From Candidatus Shapirobacteria bacterium (GTDB lineage Bacteria > Patescibacteriota > Microgenomatia > UBA12405), in the NCBI GenBank assembly GCA_041659325.1, contig JBAZYN010000001.1, forward strand, positions 197,428 through 236,818: a stretch of 39,391 bases of DNA, read 5' to 3'. The position numbers and the translations under genes are program-made. The notes under the pieces were generated by a model, which was given only the letters and a program-made list of their open reading frames with translations, did not search any database and was not told the origin of the DNA. Below are positions 3,293 to 10,460 of the stretch, one piece after another. Within the stretch, counting starts at the first letter, position 1, and every line of letters starts with the position of its first letter.

Positions 3293-3339
3293 TTTATCAT
3301 AATTTATAAAATGTCGATGTCAACGTGTATAATTCGTCC

Positions 3340-4326
3340 ATGTCAGACGTTATCTCCCTTTTCAAAAAACTAATCTCTACCCCCTCGGTCACCGGTAATG
3401 AGCAAAACATCTGTCTCGAGGTCTACAACATGCTGACAGATGAAGGTTTTTCGACCAAAAAGATTCCTGTGTCGGACAACCGATTTAACATTTTTGCTAG
3501 TCTTGGTATACCAAAAGTTATTCTATCTGCGCACCTTGATACGGTATCACCATATATCCCACCAAAAGAAACCGATACTCATATTTATGGTCGTGGTTCC
3601 TGCGACACTAAATCCTGTGTCGCCTCCATGATTACGGCCGCCGTTAAGTGCAAGGAAGACGGACTATCAAATTTTGGCTTAATCTTTACGGTTGGCGAAG
3701 AGGAAGATTTTGACGGTGCCATAAAAATAAAAGAATCGGGATTAAAAATTCCCTTTATAATCGTTGGCGAACCAACCTCATTGGAAATCGTAAATGGTCA
3801 CTTTGGCATGCTGGTATTGAAAATTACCGCCCCGGGCAAAGCGGCTCATAGCAGTACCCCCGAAAAAGGTATTAACGCCATAGATAGTTTAATTTTAGCC
3901 ATCAAGCAGATTCAGTCAATTCCCATTTATCCCGATTCACTGATGAGTTTGGTAAAAATTGATGGTGGAATCGCCGACAATATAATTCCGGCTGAATCAA
4001 ATTGCACCTTTTCGTTTAGGATTCATCCGCAGGATACCAACGATTATCAAAAGATTATTAAGTCAGTTATCGGCTCCTCGTACAAAATAACAAAGATTTT
4101 GGATGCTTCCAGTGTTTATTCGAAAGTCCCGAATGAATTGTCATTTATAAAAAAACAAAAAATAGTCAAGTATGGTACTGATTTGTCGATATTAAAAAAT
4201 GGAATTGTTCTTGGGCCGGGTGATATCAAATACGCCCACGGGGATAATGAACAAATTAAGAAAAGTGAACTAAAAAGAGCGGTTAACGTTTATTATGAAA
4301 TAATTAAGAATTTTGTGGTAAAATAA
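3340..4326 (+). CDS. M20 family metallo-hydrolase (ArgE/DapE-like)
   Basis: SAHLDTV, GRGSCDTK, GEEED, VGEP, GKAAHSS and AHGDNE motifs; ATG 3340 lies 6 nt after TATAAT. Confidence 0.9.
   Translation: MSDVISLFKKLISTPSVTGNEQNICLEVYNMLTDEGFSTKKIPVSDNRFNIFASLGIPKVILSAHLDTVSPYIPPKETDTHIYGRGSCDTKSCVASMITAAVKCKEDGLSNFGLIFTVGEEEDFDGAIKIKESGLKIPFIIVGEPTSLEIVNGHFGMLVLKITAPGKAAHSSTPEKGINAIDSLILAIKQIQSIPIYPDSLMSLVKIDGGIADNIIPAESNCTFSFRIHPQDTNDYQKIIKSVIGSSYKITKILDASSVYSKVPNELSFIKKQKIVKYGTDLSILKNGIVLGPGDIKYAHGDNEQIKKSELKRAVNVYYEIIKNFVVK
4316..4324 (+). promoter_or_regulatory. Extended -10 promoter for a leaderless His leader peptide
   Basis: TGgTAAAAT lies 7 nt before ATG 4332, the same geometry seen at many other genes in the window. 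Confidence 0.65.
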
Positions 4327-4331
4327 CCCCA

Positions 4332-4376
4332 ATGACCAATCAAATAAGATCAATTGCTCATCATCACGCTAACTAG
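4332..4376 (+). CDS. Histidine attenuator leader peptide MTNQIRSIAHHHAN
   Basis: ATG 4332 to TAG 4376 with consecutive CAT CAT CAC at 4359-4367, directly followed by mutually exclusive hairpins. Confidence 0.8.
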   Translation: MTNQIRSIAHHHAN

Positions 4377-4432
4377 TTGTTGGCGGATTTGATTGTGTCA
4401 AAATTACCGCCAACAAATGGCGGTTCTTTTTT
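4367..4432 (+). promoter_or_regulatory. Transcription attenuator (protector, antiterminator, terminator)
   Basis: 1:2 CGCTAAC 4367-4373 / GTTGGCG 4379-4385; 2:3 TTGTTGGCGG 4377-4386 / CCGCCAACAA 4407-4416 (perfect 10 bp); 3:4 ACCGCCA 4406-4412 / TGGCGGT 4418-4424 followed by TCTTTTTT. Confidence 0.8.
4406..4432 (+). terminator. Intrinsic terminator (attenuator 3:4)
   Basis: 7-bp GC-rich stem, 5-nt loop and T-tract. Confidence 0.8.
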
Positions 4433-4488
4433 GTACTTTTTAGGTCGAAATTTAAAGGGAAGCGCCTAAATTTTGCCTAAAAATACAA

Positions 4489-4513
4489 TCCCGATTGCGA
4501 AGCGTCATCGGGA
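4489..4513. repeat. TCCCGA...TCGGGA-type palindrome
   Basis: TCCCGAT-tgcgaagcgtc-ATCGGGA; similar arms at 8862-8883 and 29869-29890. Confidence 0.55.
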
Positions 4514-4603
4514 AGGCTCATTTACTTACATGGTGGAACGTAGGAGTTTTGGTAAAAATTTAAACGTCCCAACCACGTCGGTTTGCTTTAGCAAACTATA
4601 CTT

Positions 4604-4677
4604 GGTGGTATTAGCTCAATGGTTAGAGCGCTGCTCTGTGAAAGCAGAGGTTGCCGGTTCGACCCCGGTATACCACC
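4604..4677 (+). tRNA. tRNA-His(GTG)
   Basis: 8-bp acceptor GGTGGTAT/ATACCACC including the G-1:C73 identity pair; anticodon arm CTGCT-CTGTGAA-AGCAG; T-loop GGTTCGAC; full CCA not encoded. Confidence 0.97.
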
Positions 4678-4913
4678 CAACAGTATCCGAAATTATTATA
4701 ATCTACATGACGAGATCCAGTAATTGTTTGTAATTTTTGATAAATCTGTTTTCTTAAAACATTATATAGTCATCATCCCCCCAAGCGGTGGATTGTTAAC
4801 CAATATCATTGCCTTAAACTAGGCTGACTACCTTCAGGTAAATGTTTATAAAATAATATTGTTTGGCATTACTATAATGCCATTAAGAAAAGATGTAAAA
4901 TTGATGCGTAAGA

Positions 4914-6386
4914 ATGCAAACATATAAACAGTTACGAAGAACAAGAAAGCTTAAGAAGTTTGGGAAGAAGGTTGTTATTGCCATTCTGTTTTTAGGTATA
5001 AGTTATCTGCTTTCCCTATTGTCGTTCTATATTTATACCCAACTGTCACAGATTTTACAGCCGGCAGAAAAAGGATTTTTGGGATTTGCCATTATTGGTG
5101 TAATCGCAGGACTTGTTGCCGTACTTGTTTCATTTGCCAATAAGCGACTGGTTCTAACTGTGGTTATTTCGTTTCTTGTTGACTGCCTGGTTAACAGTAT
5201 CATTTTATTTTCCAGCTTAGGCACAAAAGTTATCTCGTTTCTCCCTGGTTTAATGGTCGGAATGTTTACAGTGGTTGGCTCTGGATATTTATTAAGAAGA
5301 AAATTCGGTTTTCTTGATATAAGTATTCTGTCCCCGCGTTGCCTGAAAGAAAAGGATTACAAAAAATATGCTCTCGCCCGAAAACTATTAGAAAACCCGA
5401 ATAAAATTACTATGACAATCTTGAATGATGCTTGCGGACTTTTTCAAGATAAAGACGTTGATCCAAAAATTGGCGCAGTATTAAAGGAGGTGGACAATTT
5501 TACCAGAGCACTAGGTGGTGATGTAGCGGGGTTTATTGTGGCCCACATAAAAACAGAGACAGAAAAAGATGAAGAAAAAAAAGAGAAAGTATTGTTTTTT
5601 ATTGATCTTATAAACGATATAAAAGAAGAAATTGACTTCGCCTTTGTTAGGATAGGATCTGGCGAAGCCAAAAACTTTGTTGATCATCCGATAAAGCAGG
5701 CTCATCACAGTTATATAGCTAGTGCAGCGACATCGGCTAATAACCCGTCTATTGTGGCCACCATTGTGGCCGGATCGGTAATTGCTACCAGTGCCGCGGG
5801 AATTATTCCTGGTCTTCCCCTTATATCACAAAATGTTATCCACCCGAAAGAAATACAATCTACTCAGGGAATAGTCAGACCTACGCAAACCGCGACTCCA
5901 ACAATTTTGCCAACAGAGACACCGACGCCCAAACCCACAAACAAACCAGCCATAATTTTTTCAGCCGTCGAGAAAACTTTTTTCGTCTCCGCTCCCCAAG
6001 AAGGAACCATTTTTACCGTTAACGCCAGCGGAACATACAGGTTTACTATTATTGGAGGAGCAGCAGAGATTTCTCCGCAAAAATCCCAACCAAATTACCC
6101 TGAGCAATGGGGATGGCAAACAAAATTGTTGATTTATAAAAACCGAGCCATTGCATTTGGCCCAACTCTTTCGGGATTAGGTAATCCTCTTGTAGGGTGG
6201 ATTTATCTCATGGGTGATCCAAATTTAAAGCCAACAGCCGCAGAAGCCGAACAATCCGGCAAAGGGAAATACATAGACCTTACTTTGAATAAAGATGATT
6301 ATCTGATCTTTATTGTTGATGATTCAGATGGTGGTTTTGTAGATAATAACGGAGGCGTATCCCTCCAAGTTCAAAAGGGAGTCTAA
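4914..6386 (+). CDS. Hypothetical membrane-anchored surface protein
   Basis: Basic N-terminus, about 4 hydrophobic segments, a charged middle region, another hydrophobic stretch, a PT-rich linker and a beta-rich C-terminal domain. Confidence 0.7.
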   Translation: MQTYKQLRRTRKLKKFGKKVVIAILFLGISYLLSLLSFYIYTQLSQILQPAEKGFLGFAIIGVIAGLVAVLVSFANKRLVLTVVISFLVDCLVNSIILFSSLGTKVISFLPGLMVGMFTVVGSGYLLRRKFGFLDISILSPRCLKEKDYKKYALARKLLENPNKITMTILNDACGLFQDKDVDPKIGAVLKEVDNFTRALGGDVAGFIVAHIKTETEKDEEKKEKVLFFIDLINDIKEEIDFAFVRIGSGEAKNFVDHPIKQAHHSYIASAATSANNPSIVATIVAGSVIATSAAGIIPGLPLISQNVIHPKEIQSTQGIVRPTQTATPTILPTETPTPKPTNKPAIIFSAVEKTFFVSAPQEGTIFTVNASGTYRFTIIGGAAEISPQKSQPNYPEQWGWQTKLLIYKNRAIAFGPTLSGLGNPLVGWIYLMGDPNLKPTAAEAEQSGKGKYIDLTLNKDDYLIFIVDDSDGGFVDNNGGVSLQVQKGV

Positions 6387-6418
6387 AAATGCGATTATGT
6401 TTAGTTTGGGCTAAATAT

Positions 6419-6427
6419 TGATATAAT
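6419..6427 (+). promoter_or_regulatory. Extended -10 promoter of the GNAT-hisS leader
   Basis: TGaTATAAT, a perfect extended -10. Confidence 0.7.
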
Positions 6428-6516
6428 TGAGTTTAATTAAACCGGTCGGGTTCAAACTTGTCCAGTTTCGAACATCAGCTGGGAGACGACCCCACAACTT
6501 TATAACTTTCTACTTT

Positions 6517-6612
6517 ATGAACTTTATAAACTTTAATACTTATTCGCATCATACCCATACCGTGGTCACCATTCCGCGGGGTATTGCAGTGACCATCCTC
6601 AAATCTTTCTAG
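6517..6612 (+). CDS. Putative His attenuator leader peptide MNFINFNTYSHHTHTVVTIPRGIAVTILKSF
   Basis: CAT CAT ACC CAT at 6547-6558; lies upstream of a terminator and the GNAT-hisS operon. Confidence 0.6.
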   Translation: MNFINFNTYSHHTHTVVTIPRGIAVTILKSF

Positions 6613-6633
6613 AAAAGATAAATATTAACTTTT

Positions 6634-6659
6634 AAACCCCCGCAATCGCGGGGGTTTTT
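6634..6659 (+). terminator. Intrinsic terminator in the hisS operon leader
   Basis: AAACCCCCGC-AATC-GCGGGGGTTT followed by TTCGTTTCTTT; left arm also complementary to ATT-cc-GCGGGG at 6571-6581. Confidence 0.85.
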
Positions 6660-6763
6660 CGTTTCTTTGGGTCAAATAATAAACCGAATGGTGAAATATT
6701 TTGACCTAAGACACAATCCGATAGCTTAAGATAATCGGGATAAATTTATTTAACAAAATTATT

Positions 6764-7462
6764 ATGATCAAAGAAATATCATTATTAACATTATCTCCGG
6801 AGACAATTATCGCCTCCGATCAAATTAGTCAAATTGCGATTTTATATGCCGATGTTTTTCGGGGACCACCATGGAACGAAGCGGTAAAATGCAATTCTTG
6901 CAAAAAATACGAAGAGGAATCGGTTGCCGTTAATTCTCCATGTCCTTGTGGTGGTTATTTCAGTGAAGCTTATCCTTTGTCGGAAACCAAGGGTTATATT
7001 GAGTCAGAATCTCAAATACCTGGCTTCCGTCTCACACTTGTGAAAGATAAGGAACAAGTCGTGGGTTTCGCCTGGAGTTACCTAACCACTCCGGCAAAAC
7101 TTGTTGTTGCCAAATGGTCAGATCCACAAAATCAACAGTCCATACTTAAAGTTCTTGAAAGAAATGATTTAACTCCTAATACTCAATTTCGCTATTTCTG
7201 TGAAATTGGCATTGCTCCGGAATATAGAGGTCTCGGTCTTTCAAACTATCTTTCCAAACAGGTTGTGGGCTCTGAACCAACTCTGTTTAGAACCAACATT
7301 GGCACCAAAATGATGGCGGTCGGAGCGACTCTTGGCTTTGAACAAATAATGGGGCCGGAAGTAACTGTCGATCGTTCAGGTGGCATAATTATTCCCACCG
7401 GGAAAATATTTAACCGCCTTGATTCCGAAAGAGAGGATCGGGTTCTATTTTTAAAATCATAA
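6764..7462 (+). CDS. GNAT-family N-acetyltransferase with a Cys-rich insert
   Basis: YADVF..PPWNE N-terminal motif, VVGFAWSY, and acetyl-CoA motif EIGIAPEYRGLGLS; CxxC...CPC cluster. Confidence 0.75.
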   Translation: MIKEISLLTLSPETIIASDQISQIAILYADVFRGPPWNEAVKCNSCKKYEEESVAVNSPCPCGGYFSEAYPLSETKGYIESESQIPGFRLTLVKDKEQVVGFAWSYLTTPAKLVVAKWSDPQNQQSILKVLERNDLTPNTQFRYFCEIGIAPEYRGLGLSNYLSKQVVGSEPTLFRTNIGTKMMAVGATLGFEQIMGPEVTVDRSGGIIIPTGKIFNRLDSEREDRVLFLKS

Positions 7463-7470
7463 AAATTTCA

Positions 7471-8754
7471 ATGCTACAATCAACTATGAATCAACTAATT
7501 CAACCGGTTAAAGGTACCCGTGATTTTTATCCCGAAGATCAGGCCTTTCAAACTTGGTTTTTCCAAAAAGTCAGGGAAGTTTCTGAAACCTTTGGGTTTC
7601 AGGAATACAACGGTCCGTTTCTGGAGCCTCTGGAACTTTATGCCGCCAAATCAGGTGAGGAGCTGGTTAAAAAACAAGCTTTTACTTTAACTGATCAGTC
7701 GGGAAAAATTCTAGCTCTAAGGCCGGAAATGACACCCACTCTCGCCCGCATGATTGCCCAAAAAGACGGTGAATTAACCTTTCCCGTAAAGTGGTGGACT
7801 TATGGCTCACGTTACAGATACGAAAAACCCCAGAAAGGTCGTGGACGGGAGTTTTTTCAGTGGGATTGCGATATTATCGGTACCGACGGATTCGAGGCCG
7901 ATGCCGAAGCAATTGCCATCGCCGCTACCATGTATAGAAAATTAGGATTAACCTCCACAGATGTAAAAATAAAAATCAATGATCGCCAACTTCTTCAAGG
8001 TGAACTTTTAAATATCGGAGTCCCGGAAAATCTAATTGTTAATGTTTTTAGAATTGCTGATAAAAAAGACAAAGTTACCGAAGTGGATTTCAAAGAAATG
8101 CTTTTAGAAACCGGACTAACCGAGTCACAGACGGATATGGTTAAGAAAACTCTTGAAGACAAAGATCTTTATAAAAAATCTGAATGGCTTTTAAAAATTT
8201 TTGATCTTTTAAAAATTTATGGAATTTCCGATTTTGTAGAATTTGATCCCGGGATTGTTCGTGGACTTGAATATTACACCAGAACCGTTTTTGAAGGTTG
8301 GGATGTAAACGGAGAATTTCGGGCCATCTGGGGCGGTGGCAGATATGACAATCTAGTTGCTGATGTCGGTTCCAAAAACAAAGTACCCGGAGTTGGCTTT
8401 GCAATGGGGGATATGGTTATTGCCGAAGTTTTGAAACAATATAAAAAATATCCGGTCCTTTCTGCAAATAAATCCAAGGTCTTAGTAACTGTATTTTCAC
8501 CGGAACTTTTTAACAGTTCACTCGAAGTCACAAACATACTTCGAAAAAATAACATAAATACCGAAATCTACCTTAACCCCGACATAAAAATTGATAAACA
8601 ATTAAAATATGCCGATAAAAAGGGTATTCCTTATGTTATAGTTCTCGGCCCTGATGAAATTAAAGCCGACTCGGTTACGATAAAAAATATGTCTTCTGGT
8701 ACTCAAACTACAGTCAAGAAAGAAGACGTGGTTAATTCAATAACTCCAAGTTGA
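7471..8754 (+). CDS. hisS: Histidine--tRNA ligase
   Basis: KGTRDF, LRPEMT, RYEKPQKGRGREFFQ, RGLEYYT and GGGRYD motifs plus anticodon-binding domain; start may be ATG 7486. Confidence 0.97.
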   Translation: MLQSTMNQLIQPVKGTRDFYPEDQAFQTWFFQKVREVSETFGFQEYNGPFLEPLELYAAKSGEELVKKQAFTLTDQSGKILALRPEMTPTLARMIAQKDGELTFPVKWWTYGSRYRYEKPQKGRGREFFQWDCDIIGTDGFEADAEAIAIAATMYRKLGLTSTDVKIKINDRQLLQGELLNIGVPENLIVNVFRIADKKDKVTEVDFKEMLLETGLTESQTDMVKKTLEDKDLYKKSEWLLKIFDLLKIYGISDFVEFDPGIVRGLEYYTRTVFEGWDVNGEFRAIWGGGRYDNLVADVGSKNKVPGVGFAMGDMVIAEVLKQYKKYPVLSANKSKVLVTVFSPELFNSSLEVTNILRKNNINTEIYLNPDIKIDKQLKYADKKGIPYVIVLGPDEIKADSVTIKNMSSGTQTTVKKEDVVNSITPS

Positions 8755-8854
8755 GCGCTAGTCACCGTTATCGAGCTATTCAATAATTTATACATGCGTA
8801 TCTGTTAAAGTTGTACCGAAAAATCGAACGTATTTTGAGTTATAATCATTCTCA

Positions 8855-8913
8855 CCCCGCTCGTCCCGTCGCCGGTCGGGACGTAAATCGCGCCTGTCCG
8901 CCTTTGGAGGGGG
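8855..8913. repeat. Composite palindromic element
   Basis: CCCCGC...GCGGG outer arms interrupted by CGTCCCG-N8-CGGGACG (8862-8883) and CCTGTCCGCCTTTGGAGGG (8893-8911). Confidence 0.6.
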
Positions 8914-9015
8914 TTCGATTGAAAATTATTCAAAAAAACAAATAGCCCAAACCAAGATTCGATAGTGTAAACCAAATCATTATTTGTAAGACCCCATCAA
9001 TACCATAGATATTAT

Positions 9016-9300
9016 CTATAACAAATCAGGATCAATCCAAGTAGTCCCAAAAGGTTGCCTATCTCCAACATGAATCCCGTCACTTTTTCTCTCTATATAG
9101 AAGGCTCCATCAATTTCCGGCACAGGTATTAAATCTAGATCTTCACGTAAGGTGACAATCCATCCGCCTTTACGTAACTTTTCAGCCTCACCCAAGCGAC
9201 TCAATACGGCATTTGCTTTGGCCCCCTTAATTCCATAATTACTTTCCGGACCGTCACCGACAAGATTTAGTGATAAGATTTCCACTCTTTTTCCTGCCAT
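9016..9300 (-). CDS. Hypothetical protein
   Basis: 94-aa ORF filling the intergenic space, with TGaTAAAAT 9 nt upstream; no family recognised. Confidence 0.6.
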   Translation of the reverse strand: MAGKRVEILSLNLVGDGPESNYGIKGAKANAVLSRLGEAEKLRKGGWIVTLREDLDLIPVPEIDGAFYIERKSDGIHVGDRQPFGTTWIDPDLL

Positions 9301-9377
9301 ATAGAAACGATTTTATCATAATATCCTATATAAAGCAAAACTCAGAATAATTCCCAAAAACCGTGAGTATCGTATCT

Positions 9378-9752
9378 GTTACCCCACATGGTGTCCTCCA
9401 CCTTCGGTTACGGAACACCTAAGATTCTGTCTTGCTTTCACATCTTTCTTTAAAGCTTCAGATATCAACCTTTTATAAGCGAATGCTTTTCCAGAACCGC
9501 TTTTCAAATAAAGTTCAAAATCTTTAGCCTCTTGCTCACTTTCAAAAGATCCATACCAAACTAATTTCCATGGAATATGCGGTTTTGTTGAAAATACATT
9601 TCCTCTGTTGTGTAATTCAAATCTGTTCCTCAGGTCTGAGGTGTATCCATAGTAGAAAATATGTGATTTTGAACTTAACAATATGTAGGAATAAAACATT
9701 CCTCAGTATAACCATTCTGAAGCTTTAGCGAAAGATGGGTTACCCCACATGG
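9378..9752 (-). mobile_element. Putative tRNA-Gln-associated GIY-YIG mini-element
   Basis: 14-nt direct repeat GTTACCCCACATGG at 9378-9391 and 9739-9752 (tRNA 3' end); 22-nt inverted repeats at 9441-9462 and 9716-9737 (20/22 identical). Confidence 0.6.
9379..9699 (-). CDS. GIY-YIG nuclease family protein
   Basis: YSYIL...YYGYT..L..R...HN, PWKLV and E..LKSG motifs; C-terminal tail is read through repeat DNA. Confidence 0.9.
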   Translation of the reverse strand: MFYSYILLSSKSHIFYYGYTSDLRNRFELHNRGNVFSTKPHIPWKLVWYGSFESEQEAKDFELYLKSGSGKAFAYKRLISEALKKDVKARQNLRCSVTEGGGHHVG

Positions 9753-9810
9753 ATTCGAACCACAATTACTACGTTCAGAGCGTAGTGTCCTACCATTAGA
9801 CGATGGGGTA
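9740..9810 (-). tRNA. tRNA-Gln(CTG)
   Basis: Acceptor TACCCCA/TGGGGTA, anticodon arm CTACG-CTCTGAA-CGTAG, T-loop GGTTCGAATCC; TGaTAGAAT promoter 15 nt upstream. Confidence 0.97.
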
Positions 9811-9821
9811 TTGTATCTGCG

Positions 9822-10460
9822 CTATATTCTATCAAATTTGTACTTTTTTGACTCGTTTTCAATGGTTGTTTCCTGTCCGTGCCCGGAAAGAACCAAAGTC
9901 TCAGGAGACAGCTCCATCAATTTCCGTATACTTTTAAAAATTTCCTCAGTTGAGCCATATTTAAAGTCGGTCCTACCGCGCAGGGCAAAAAACAAAGTAT
10001 CTCCAGAAAACAACAAGTTTTCTTTTGGACAATAAAAGCATACTCCTCCCGGGGTATGGCCGGGGGTTTTAATAATTTTTATTGTATTAGCCCCCAAATG
10101 AATTTCGTCTATTTGATCTAAGTCTGTATCAATATTTTCAATATTCGGTGTTGCCACATTTTTGTTAAGAAAATAGCCTGCGGTTTGATTTTGTCTCTTC
10201 AGTAAAAACATGTCTCTTTTACTGCAATATATGGGAACATTAAACATCAGCTTCATATCAAGCGCGGCCATCACATGATCAAAATGTCCGTGAGTTAAAA
10301 AAACTCCCGTCGGTTTCAAACTATTTTTTTGTATCTCTTCTACAATATAATCAGCTTCGTCAGCCGGATCGATAATAAAACACTTTCGCTCCTCACTCTC
10401 CCAAAGAAGATAACAGTTTGTTTGCATTTCCCCCAATACTAAAGTCCTATATTCCAACAT
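9822..10460 (-). CDS. MBL-fold metallo-hydrolase (glyoxalase II-like)
   Basis: THGHFDH, TPGHTPG, FSGDTLF and GHG motifs; ATG 10460 lies 7 nt after TGgTAAAAT. Confidence 0.92.
   Translation of the reverse strand: MLEYRTLVLGEMQTNCYLLWESEERKCFIIDPADEADYIVEEIQKNSLKPTGVFLTHGHFDHVMAALDMKLMFNVPIYCSKRDMFLLKRQNQTAGYFLNKNVATPNIENIDTDLDQIDEIHLGANTIKIIKTPGHTPGGVCFYCPKENLLFSGDTLFFALRGRTDFKYGSTEEIFKSIRKLMELSPETLVLSGHGQETTIENESKKYKFDRI

Follow-up and report, generated by a model that had tools for sequence, protein, structure and literature searches.

Here we describe two short open reading frames (ORFs) rich in histidine codons, and the RNA structures that follow them, in a 39,391-nt stretch (hereafter, the window) of contig JBAZYN010000001.1, a 574 kb contig of a Candidatus Shapirobacteria genome (Microgenomates, Candidate Phyla Radiation (CPR)/Patescibacteria) from a groundwater metagenome sample; the genome itself was examined within this window only. 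The first ORF (leader 1) precedes the gene of the histidine transfer RNA (tRNA-His), and the second (leader 2) precedes a GNAT-like gene and hisS, which encodes the histidyl-tRNA synthetase (HisRS). This arrangement had been taken, from the sequence alone (the sequence-only reading), for a His-sensing regulon with two candidate attenuators, based on the His codons of the ORFs (HHH at 4359-4367 and HHTH at 6547-6558), an extended -10 box upstream of each, and terminators whose left arms can pair with an upstream segment. All elements lie at the coordinates given or within a few bases of them: both ORFs are in place, both boxes are present (4316-4324 and 6419-6427, the second read by eye and unlisted in the promoter scan), and both upstream pairings exist (TTGTTGGCGG/CCGCCAACAA and GCGGGG/CCCCGC). 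Among the downstream genes, tRNA-His (ARAGORN, Rfam) and hisS (Pfam) were verified, while the GNAT label reached sub-threshold level only. Both leader observations were confirmed as real and non-random.

Leader 1 and the tRNA-His gene

Leader 1 and its target comprise:

4295-4324, + strand: leader-1 promoter, a match of the promoter scan with TG flag; its extended -10 box TGgTAAAAT (4316-4324) lies 7 nt before the ATG
4332-4376, + strand: leader ORF 1, from the ATG at 4332 to the TAG ending at 4376, 14 codons encoding MTNQIRSIAHHHAN followed by the stop, with the His codons CAT CAT CAC at 4359-4367
4334-4399, + strand: no-ribosome fold, in which an outer helix (4334-4345 : 4387-4399) encloses the protector hairpin 1:2
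4377-4416, + strand: antiterminator 2:3, TTGTTGGCGG (4377-4386) pairing with CCGCCAACAA (4407-4416), a perfect 10 bp
4406-4433, + strand: terminator 3:4, ACCGCCA-ACAAA-TGGCGGT (4406-4424) followed by TCTTTTTTG, kept in all leader-1 relatives
4434-4603, + strand: spacer between terminator 1 and tRNA-His, hairpin-rich and variable
4604-4678, + strand: tRNA-His(GTG), with encoded G-1 at 4604 (ARAGORN 4605-4678; Rfam 68 bits)

The extended -10 box overlaps the last codons and the stop of an M20 peptidase gene, and the promoter scan of the window found no further plus-strand promoter-like site from the leader-1 promoter to tRNA-His, and none within the spacer (4434-4603). Transcription would start ca. 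7 nt past the box, i.e., at or just before the AUG. Given that the box lies 7 nt before the ATG and that leader 1 has no Shine-Dalgarno sequence, it is most simply understood as a leaderless mRNA and is probably translated as such. Region 1 (CGCTAAC, 4367-4373), which begins within the third His codon, pairs with GTTGGCG (4379-4385) in the protector hairpin 1:2, and region 2 lies directly 3' of the stop codon; in terminator 1, region 3 forms the left arm and region 4 is TGGCGGT (4418-4424). The folding of leader 1 has a minimum free energy (MFE) of -32.4 kcal/mol and a z-score of -4.65.

Conservation of leader 1 in related genomes

The closest HisRS matches (in one-genome-per-species contigs) belong to Shapirobacteria and Patescibacteria metagenome-assembled genomes (MAGs; 52-75% identity), and the next block consists of many Anaerolineae (Chloroflexota, 45-52% identity), i.e., the nearest HisRS sequences outside the clade. 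Three MAGs labelled Clostridia or Gammaproteobacteria, with HisRS 55-64% identical (L002, L003, L009; related loci are numbered with the prefix L), are probably mislabelled Patescibacteria bins. In close relatives HisRS is 86-88% identical to that of the window; the contigs L086-L088 (86%) are syntenic, with the gene order M20 peptidase, leader 1, tRNA-His, leader 2, GNAT-like gene, and hisS. When metagenome contigs were scanned for exact matches to 44 nt of tRNA-His, an anchor independent of the leader sequences, 5 loci were retrieved. The resulting leader-1 set consists of four close variants (window, L086, L092, and L093; ~92% identical) and a distant one (L096), with the contigs L086/87/88/94/95, L092/L101, L093/L100, and L096 representing the respective types. 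Homologs of the M20 peptidase (P0149, P0150) are the L093 and L092 types again, on contigs broken within the leader, and the hisS contigs P0030 and P0031 begin within the GNAT-like gene.

An extended -10 box is also present 6-8 nt 5' of the leader-1 ATG in L086, L092, and L096. The close leader-1 peptides are MTNQIRSIAHHHAN (window), MTNQFRTIAHHHAN (L086), MTNQFVIVAHHHAN (L092), and MTNQFRTIVHHHAN (L093), and the distant peptide of L096 is MAIQAINIHHHAN, again with HHHAN-stop; this ending is invariant in all five variants, and the N-terminal residues vary. L096 has a GC content of 47% (40% in the window), different neighbour genes and another type of HisRS (N-terminus MTTPQTLKGFRDFLPD...), and its tRNA-His is 100% identical to that of the window. 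Its last six leader codons (CAT CAC CAC GCC AAC TGA) carry three silent differences (CAT to CAC, GCT to GCC, and TAG to TGA), the second of which turns a U-G pair of helix 1:2 into C-G. The extended -10 box (cTGcTATAAT) lies 8 nt before the ATG, region 2 is retained as GTTGGCGG, the terminator differs (ACCGCC-UCCG-GGCGGU), and the outer 5' helix has equal architecture built from wholly different sequences (MFE -39.5 kcal/mol, z -5.3). A covariance model made from the four close variants finds L096 at full length (25.5 bits, E 0.016 in 238 kb), its only match outside the training clade apart from the terminator of the window, which scores again on the reverse strand. In viral contigs, the pattern AACTRR-N1-3-GTTGGCGGAT occurred 120 times by chance, never downstream of His codons. 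The order in L096 is leader, terminator, tRNA-His, and hisS, and, as hisS starts 27 nt after tRNA-His, one attenuator would precede both His-specific genes; both contigs of this type stop at one identical point, before hisS can be read further.

Transcription of tRNA-His

The spacer between terminator and tRNA-His measures ~170 nt in the window, ~95 in L086, ~90 (unrelated) in L093, ~30 in L096, and 1-3 in L092. In L092 the T-run of the terminator (TTCTTTTAT) immediately adjoins G-1 of tRNA-His, which leaves no room for a promoter and therefore indicates that the tRNA is transcribed only through the candidate attenuator. Furthermore, tRNA-His genes of Anaerolineae have an obvious TAnAAT box 13-15 nt upstream, so a tRNA promoter in the window would probably have been visible. 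A freshwater metatranscriptome contig (151 nt, depth 6) matches L092:693-842 with 1 mismatch and 1 gap. It begins at leader codon 7-8 (L092:693; ATG at 673), crosses the terminator and reaches into tRNA-His, and in the same run the flanking M20 gene and the downstream sequence are without coverage. This contig fits a readthrough precursor, as a single short contig for which DNA carry-over is possible. A search for RNA-seq runs of the source sample returned none.

The spacer itself holds different stable hairpins in each close relative (window 4434-4603; L086:5789-5884; L093, ~90 nt on the minus strand) and is absent in L092, a hypervariability that is consistent with small palindromic insertions accumulating there.

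Folding of the switch and chance estimates

Switch folds were computed with the ribosome-covered RNA masked and the transcript truncated just past region 3, i.e., before region 4 is transcribed. Without a ribosome, the 5' helix and hairpin 1:2 form in all five leader-1 variants and region 3 is left free. Antiterminator 2:3 forms in all five once any of the His codons occupies the A site (-11.9 to -17.6 kcal/mol; in the window, -17.6 kcal/mol for a ribosome placed on the first or second of these codons and -12.8 for one on the third). A ribosome at the stop codon masks region 2 in all five, leaving no competitor to the terminator. What the sequences show is thus the anatomy of the switch, its conservation and its thermodynamic consistency. 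Both leaders have a short ORF with cognate codons and a terminator before the target gene; a mutually exclusive antiterminator and protector are found in 5/5 leader-1 variants and, for leader 2, in the window and L086; and the regulatory codons and pairings are kept in relatives (in L096 for leader 1, in close variants for leader 2).

Clusters of at least 3 His codons within 4 codons occur 8 times in the six frames of the window, both leaders among them. In 5000 shuffles of leader 1, an antiterminator of at least 7 bp arose in 0.6%, and together with a protector beside the His codons in 0.02%. The leaders occupy the two largest intergenic regions of the window, and among its 12 intergenic regions, including that upstream of argS, there was no other codon-run mini-ORF resembling an attenuator. 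The promoter scan returned 22 sites in the window vs 17 expected from shuffles, a slight enrichment.

Leader 2, the GNAT-like gene and hisS

The second part of the locus comprises:

4914-6386, + strand: gene of a 490-aa membrane protein with no Pfam match, separating tRNA-His from leader 2
6419-6427, + strand: leader-2 promoter candidate, extended -10 box TGaTATAAT, read from the sequence and not listed by the promoter scan
6517-6612, + strand: leader ORF 2, from the ATG at 6517 to the TAG ending at 6612, encoding MNFINFNTYSHHTHTVVTIPRGIAVTILKSF followed by the stop, with CAT CAT ACC CAT (HHTH) at 6547-6558
6562-6596, + strand: leader-2 protector hairpin, GTGGTCAC (6562-6569) pairing with GTGACCAT (6589-6596) and enclosing region 2, GCGGGG (6576-6581)
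6634-6670, + strand: leader-2 terminator, AAACCCCCGC-AATC-GCGGGGGTTT (6634-6657) and then a T-run, kept in L086 and L092
6764-7462, + strand: GNAT-like gene, encoding a 232-aa Cys-rich protein, the first gene behind putative attenuator 2
7471-8754, + strand: hisS (Pfam tRNA-synt_His 2.4e-41, and HGTP_anticodon), the second gene behind putative attenuator 2

The protector starts 4 nt past the last His codon, GCGGGG (6576-6581) would form the antiterminator with its complement CCCCGC (6638-6643) in the left arm of the terminator, and the folding z-score is -4.76. Conservation of leader 2 refers to three close variants only (window, L086, and L092). Its core, HHTHTVVT(I/S)PRG, recurs in L086 and L092, again with the GNAT-like gene and hisS downstream; both retain CATCATACCCATACCGTGGTCACCA..CCGCGGGGT.TTG and the terminator, and the intervening sequence, the C-terminus of the ORF and the position of the stop diverge. 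The ATG of the window aligns with an in-frame TTG in the relatives, with ten codons before HH in both. In L086 the protector reads GTGGTCA/TGGCCAC, a one-sided change from U-A to U-G. With ribosome masking, the folds of the window and L086 speak for the switch, and those of L092 are ambiguous. The -10 box of leader 2 is not conserved in the relatives, since these have tRNA-His directly upstream there. As close relatives have leader 2 directly 3' of tRNA-His with no terminator between, both attenuators probably act in series on one transcript in these genomes.

The membrane-protein gene is absent from this site in L086-L088 and L092, i.e., it was either inserted in the window or lost from the relatives. 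Its homologs (45-64% identical, often longer, with a weak LpqE-like/"copper(I)-binding" domain) stand in unrelated contexts, and we therefore dropped the gene as a synteny anchor. The GNAT-like protein is 73-84% identical in the relatives; its match to Pfam Acetyltransf_1 is sub-threshold (E 0.06, 14.1 bits vs a cutoff of 20.7; E 0.007 for the L086 ortholog), no relative was found in the PDB, and its AlphaFold model (predicted local distance difference test score, pLDDT, of 45) is too poor for fold assignment.

A proposed histidine-sensing feedback and its alternatives

From these comparative data we consider it probable that two independent, ribosome-mediated leader-peptide attenuators sense charged tRNA-His at this locus, one gating tRNA-His and the other the GNAT-like gene and hisS; of the two, we are more confident of leader 1. 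The transcription start, the translation of both leaders and a readthrough that depends on His are what we infer from the sequences, and the mechanism would be as follows. With plentiful His-tRNA-His, the ribosome would reach the stop codon (4374-4376) and cover region 2, whereupon region 3 would pair with region 4 and the polymerase would stop at the terminator, before tRNA-His; without translation, the 5' helix and hairpin 1:2 would sequester region 2 and lead to termination too. With scarce His-tRNA-His, the ribosome would stall at CAU CAU CAC, covering region 1 and leaving region 2 free, and the 2:3 antiterminator would then permit readthrough into tRNA-His and, in L096-type relatives, on into hisS. 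Attenuator 2 would follow an equal logic with unrelated sequences, acting on the GNAT-like gene and hisS, and the net effect would be a feedback in which a shortage of charged tRNA-His increases both tRNA-His and HisRS. Given that translation of the leader needs His-tRNA-His, the cell would measure the product of tRNA-His and HisRS, and adjust both. We lean slightly towards the wider view of a closed-loop homeostat of a cellular (probably single) tRNA-His gene, with a leaderless gate of 14 codons and with the L096 unit as its possible ancestor; if ancestral, this unit (leader, terminator, tRNA-His, and hisS) would later have been split into two attenuators in the window clade. The conservation of His codons on which the sequence-only reading had staked its case was borne out (HHHAN-stop in five variants including L096, HHTHTVVT in L086 and L092). 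As to changes in the stems, L096 has the rebuilt outer helix and the U-G to C-G replacement, the close variants show little covariation, and the change in leader 2 is one-sided. The proposed regulon as such gained support from comparative sequence data, not from experiment.

Several observations weigh against an attenuation mechanism. Conservation extends to only two clearly separate lineages (the window clade and L096), and the four close variants are ~92% identical and offer little covariation. Each leader has only three His codons, and at full-length equilibrium with a stalled ribosome the terminator is the MFE structure in 4/5 leader-1 variants, so the switch of leader 1 must be kinetic; the E. 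coli trp terminator is likewise more stable than its antiterminator. For leader 2, the fold of L092 predicts the antiterminator already without a ribosome, translation would start at TTG in the relatives, with no defined promoter there, and the stop lies well past region 2. L089 and L090 (HisRS 78% identical) are without the module, having the order tRNA-His, M20, and hisS, with tRNA-His behind a plain TTGAAC-17-TATACT promoter and no leader, and eleven further hisS loci from Patescibacteria have other upstream genes and no His mini-ORF. It is missing from the other Shapirobacteria examined as well; owing to these absences the attenuator module is patchy and confined to certain lineages. Lastly, more tRNA-His is not obviously helpful when free histidine is limiting.

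Much of the anatomy could also be expected from ordinary terminators accompanied by chance His codons, with 4406-4433 ending the M20 gene and 6634-6670 the membrane-protein transcript, tRNA-His and hisS on unrecognised promoters, and the mini-ORFs untranslated. Both terminators do follow a gene on their own strand, the 4406-4424 hairpin is so symmetrical that it also scores on the minus strand, the promoter scan is barely above shuffles (22 vs 17), and L089/L090 live without a leader. We nevertheless regard this as quite unlikely, given that L096 keeps HHHAN-stop with silent changes only, while its neighbour gene, N-terminal peptide and helices differ, and that L092 has no space for a tRNA promoter past the terminator. 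Moreover, the terminator at 6634 lies 250 nt past the stop of the membrane-protein gene and is kept 3' of tRNA-His in relatives without that gene, and the joint chance of protector and antiterminator is ~2 in 10,000 shuffles. It is unlikely, too, that we are dealing with a constitutive leader structure of the pre-tRNA or mRNA (serving processing or stability, or as a leaky terminator) with no His-dependent switching, even if translation of the mini-ORF is possible. In 4/5 variants the terminator exceeds the antiterminator in stability, the pre-tRNA spacer is full of unrelated hairpins, and L007 has a hairpin and T-run directly 5' of tRNA-His together with a mini-ORF devoid of His (MRTLVPY-stop), all of which would agree with such a structure; it leaves unexplained, however, the selection on three consecutive His codons exactly at region 1 and the mutually exclusive 2:3 pairing in two sequence-divergent lineages.

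The signal might instead be read directly, by an RNA sensor of tRNA-His (T-box-like) or by a protein such as HisRS, with the CAU/CAC triplets being specifier-like. In favour of this, T-boxes control hisS in Firmicutes and some other phyla (PMC2965389), and in leader 2 the nucleotides of the block CAUCAUACCCAUACCGUGGUCACCA are themselves conserved; no T-box match was obtained, however, at E up to 10 in 3800-9900 or at gathering threshold in 14 related loci, and no UGGG bulge able to pair with the CCCA 3' end of tRNA-His was seen by eye. The triplets are in frame in an ORF with conserved start codon and stop, and the silent changes of L096 keep the amino acid and not the sequence, which makes direct sensing very improbable. 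Equally remote is control of translation or mRNA stability by the leaders, or an action of the HHH peptide in trans. Some mycobacterial leaderless short ORFs act via translation-coupled effects (bioRxiv 10.1101/834739) and a trans-acting leader peptide, peTrpL, is known (PMC7298713), but the first target here is a tRNA and as such untranslated, both leaders end in canonical terminators (hairpin and U-run), and the peptide is not conserved outside HHHAN.

His-run leaders upstream of hisS in Chloroflexota

Among ~62 loci fetched by HisRS in the survey of Chloroflexota, a His-run mini-ORF precedes hisS by ~100-250 nt in at least 12 Anaerolineae/Chloroflexota loci (L016, L018, L019, L020, L023, L024, L027, L039, L042, L049, L055, and L063), e.g., MNFTLFHAHHHHHHHDGHFRLG and MRPKMKTNVAVHARHHHHHHHDGFFGLG, each followed by a stop, with an often conserved ending ...F(G/R)LG-stop. 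A strong terminator is present in all of them and a -10 box 7-9 nt before the ATG in most, which suggests that these leaders are leaderless too. They matched no Rfam family and look like an undescribed family of hisS leader-peptide attenuators, which would widen the known range of leader peptides of aminoacyl-tRNA synthetase (aaRS) genes. In ~40 Chloroflexota loci (within L013-L072), tRNA-His lies 20-115 nt 3' of hisS behind its own -10 box, often followed by tRNA-Arg(TCG), and the TAnAAT box sometimes overlaps the hisS stop. The linkage of hisS with tRNA-His and the putative control of hisS by His leaders are therefore common to Chloroflexota and the CPR lineage. Only in the CPR loci does the tRNA gene, too, stand behind the attenuator.

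Further observations on neighbouring genes and tRNAs

The M20 peptidase (acetylornithine deacetylase-like) recurs beside aaRS genes (window 3325-4326; L089:679-1902; L102:4001-6747), i.e., directly 5' of hisS in L089/L090 and 5' of argS in L102, where a GNAT gene precedes M20; a 60% identical M20 homolog adjoins argS. In L089:598-650 and L090:580-632, a partial 5' half of tRNA-His (GGTGGTATTAGCTCAA...GGTTAGAGC) lies between the TTGAAC-17-TATACT promoter and the intact tRNA-His, which differs from that of the window at several stem positions, suggesting replacement of the tRNA gene. Directly 3' of tRNA-His in L092 (849-985) are three tandem units of ~45 nt (gcagaggttgtcccgatgcaatcgggatataccaccctcaaaaaa) that resemble a tRNA 3' half with another T-arm and could be the scar of an integrative element or an assembly artefact. 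In L007 (1882-2203), the strong promoter TTGACA-17-TATACT drives a structured RNA of ~200 nt with a terminator at its end, just 5' of tRNA-His, and a second hairpin with T-run abuts the tRNA; this RNA has no His codons and no Rfam match.

Comparison with known systems

Among aaRS genes, E. coli pheST is an established case of leader-peptide attenuation. For bacterial tRNA genes, the usual description is control at the promoter, by growth rate and the stringent response, and not gene by gene; ultra-small CPR bacteria possess few transcription factors and probably rely on amino acids taken up from outside. E. coli pheV was discarded as a precedent, its upstream region containing no Phe leader. 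Attenuation by leader peptides has been predicted for a hisS paralog and hisZ in Bacillus (PMC2965389), for aaRS genes of Deinococcus deserti, whose leaderless leaders were mapped by differential RNA sequencing (dRNA-seq; PMC4007540), and for alaS, thrS, trpS, and leuS in Streptomyces (PMC8079986), and leaderless Cys attenuators have been described in mycobacteria (bioRxiv 10.1101/834739). Our full-text literature search found no paper with a tRNA gene behind a leader-peptide attenuator, in line with what the sequence-only reading had supposed, none on attenuators in Patescibacteria, no regulatory RNA switch for CPR/Patescibacteria, and nothing about His leader peptides preceding hisS in Chloroflexi. 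If true, no leader-peptide attenuator of a cellular tRNA gene would have been described before the system at this locus; it would exert specific feedback on a single tRNA species coupled to its cognate synthetase with a module as short as ~100 nt, and it would mean that ultra-small CPR bacteria retain classic regulation by coupled transcription and translation.

With the enterobacterial hisL leader (RF00514) and those of trp, pheA, and leu, the proposed attenuators share a short ORF with cognate codons, overlapping 1:2, 2:3, and 3:4 pairings, a terminator, and a stalled ribosome that would select the antiterminator. They differ from hisL-type attenuators in that the targets are a tRNA gene and an aaRS and not a biosynthetic operon, in having three His codons (seven in hisL), and in their probably leaderless form, with no Shine-Dalgarno sequence, in a CPR bacterium. 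Sequence similarity to hisL is lacking: the Rfam model of the His leader (RF00514) gave 21.2 bits on leader 2, vs a threshold of 49, and no match on leader 1; a known RNA family was rejected, as Rfam searches at E up to 10 returned sub-threshold matches of leader type, driven by the terminators, and 14 related loci gave no non-tRNA matches. T-boxes upstream of hisS share with the proposed attenuators the gene, the signal (charging of tRNA-His) and the terminator/antiterminator readout, but they bind uncharged tRNA directly, without a ribosome, and none was matched here.

Another close parallel lies in the predicted aaRS leader peptides, where cognate codons attenuate an aaRS gene: attenuator 2 would be a straightforward new member of this group, and the aaRS leaders of Deinococcus and Streptomyces are leaderless, as we propose for leader 1. 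In contrast to leader 1, these papers (PMC2965389, PMC4007540, PMC8079986) name no tRNA gene as the target and deal with neither Patescibacteria nor Chloroflexota, and their leaders show no sequence relationship to those described here. Thus, as far as we found, the class of mechanism and its use for aaRS genes are already known or predicted, and what would be new is that the target is a cellular tRNA gene, that the leader, in a CPR bacterium, is probably leaderless, and that the two attenuators stand in series.

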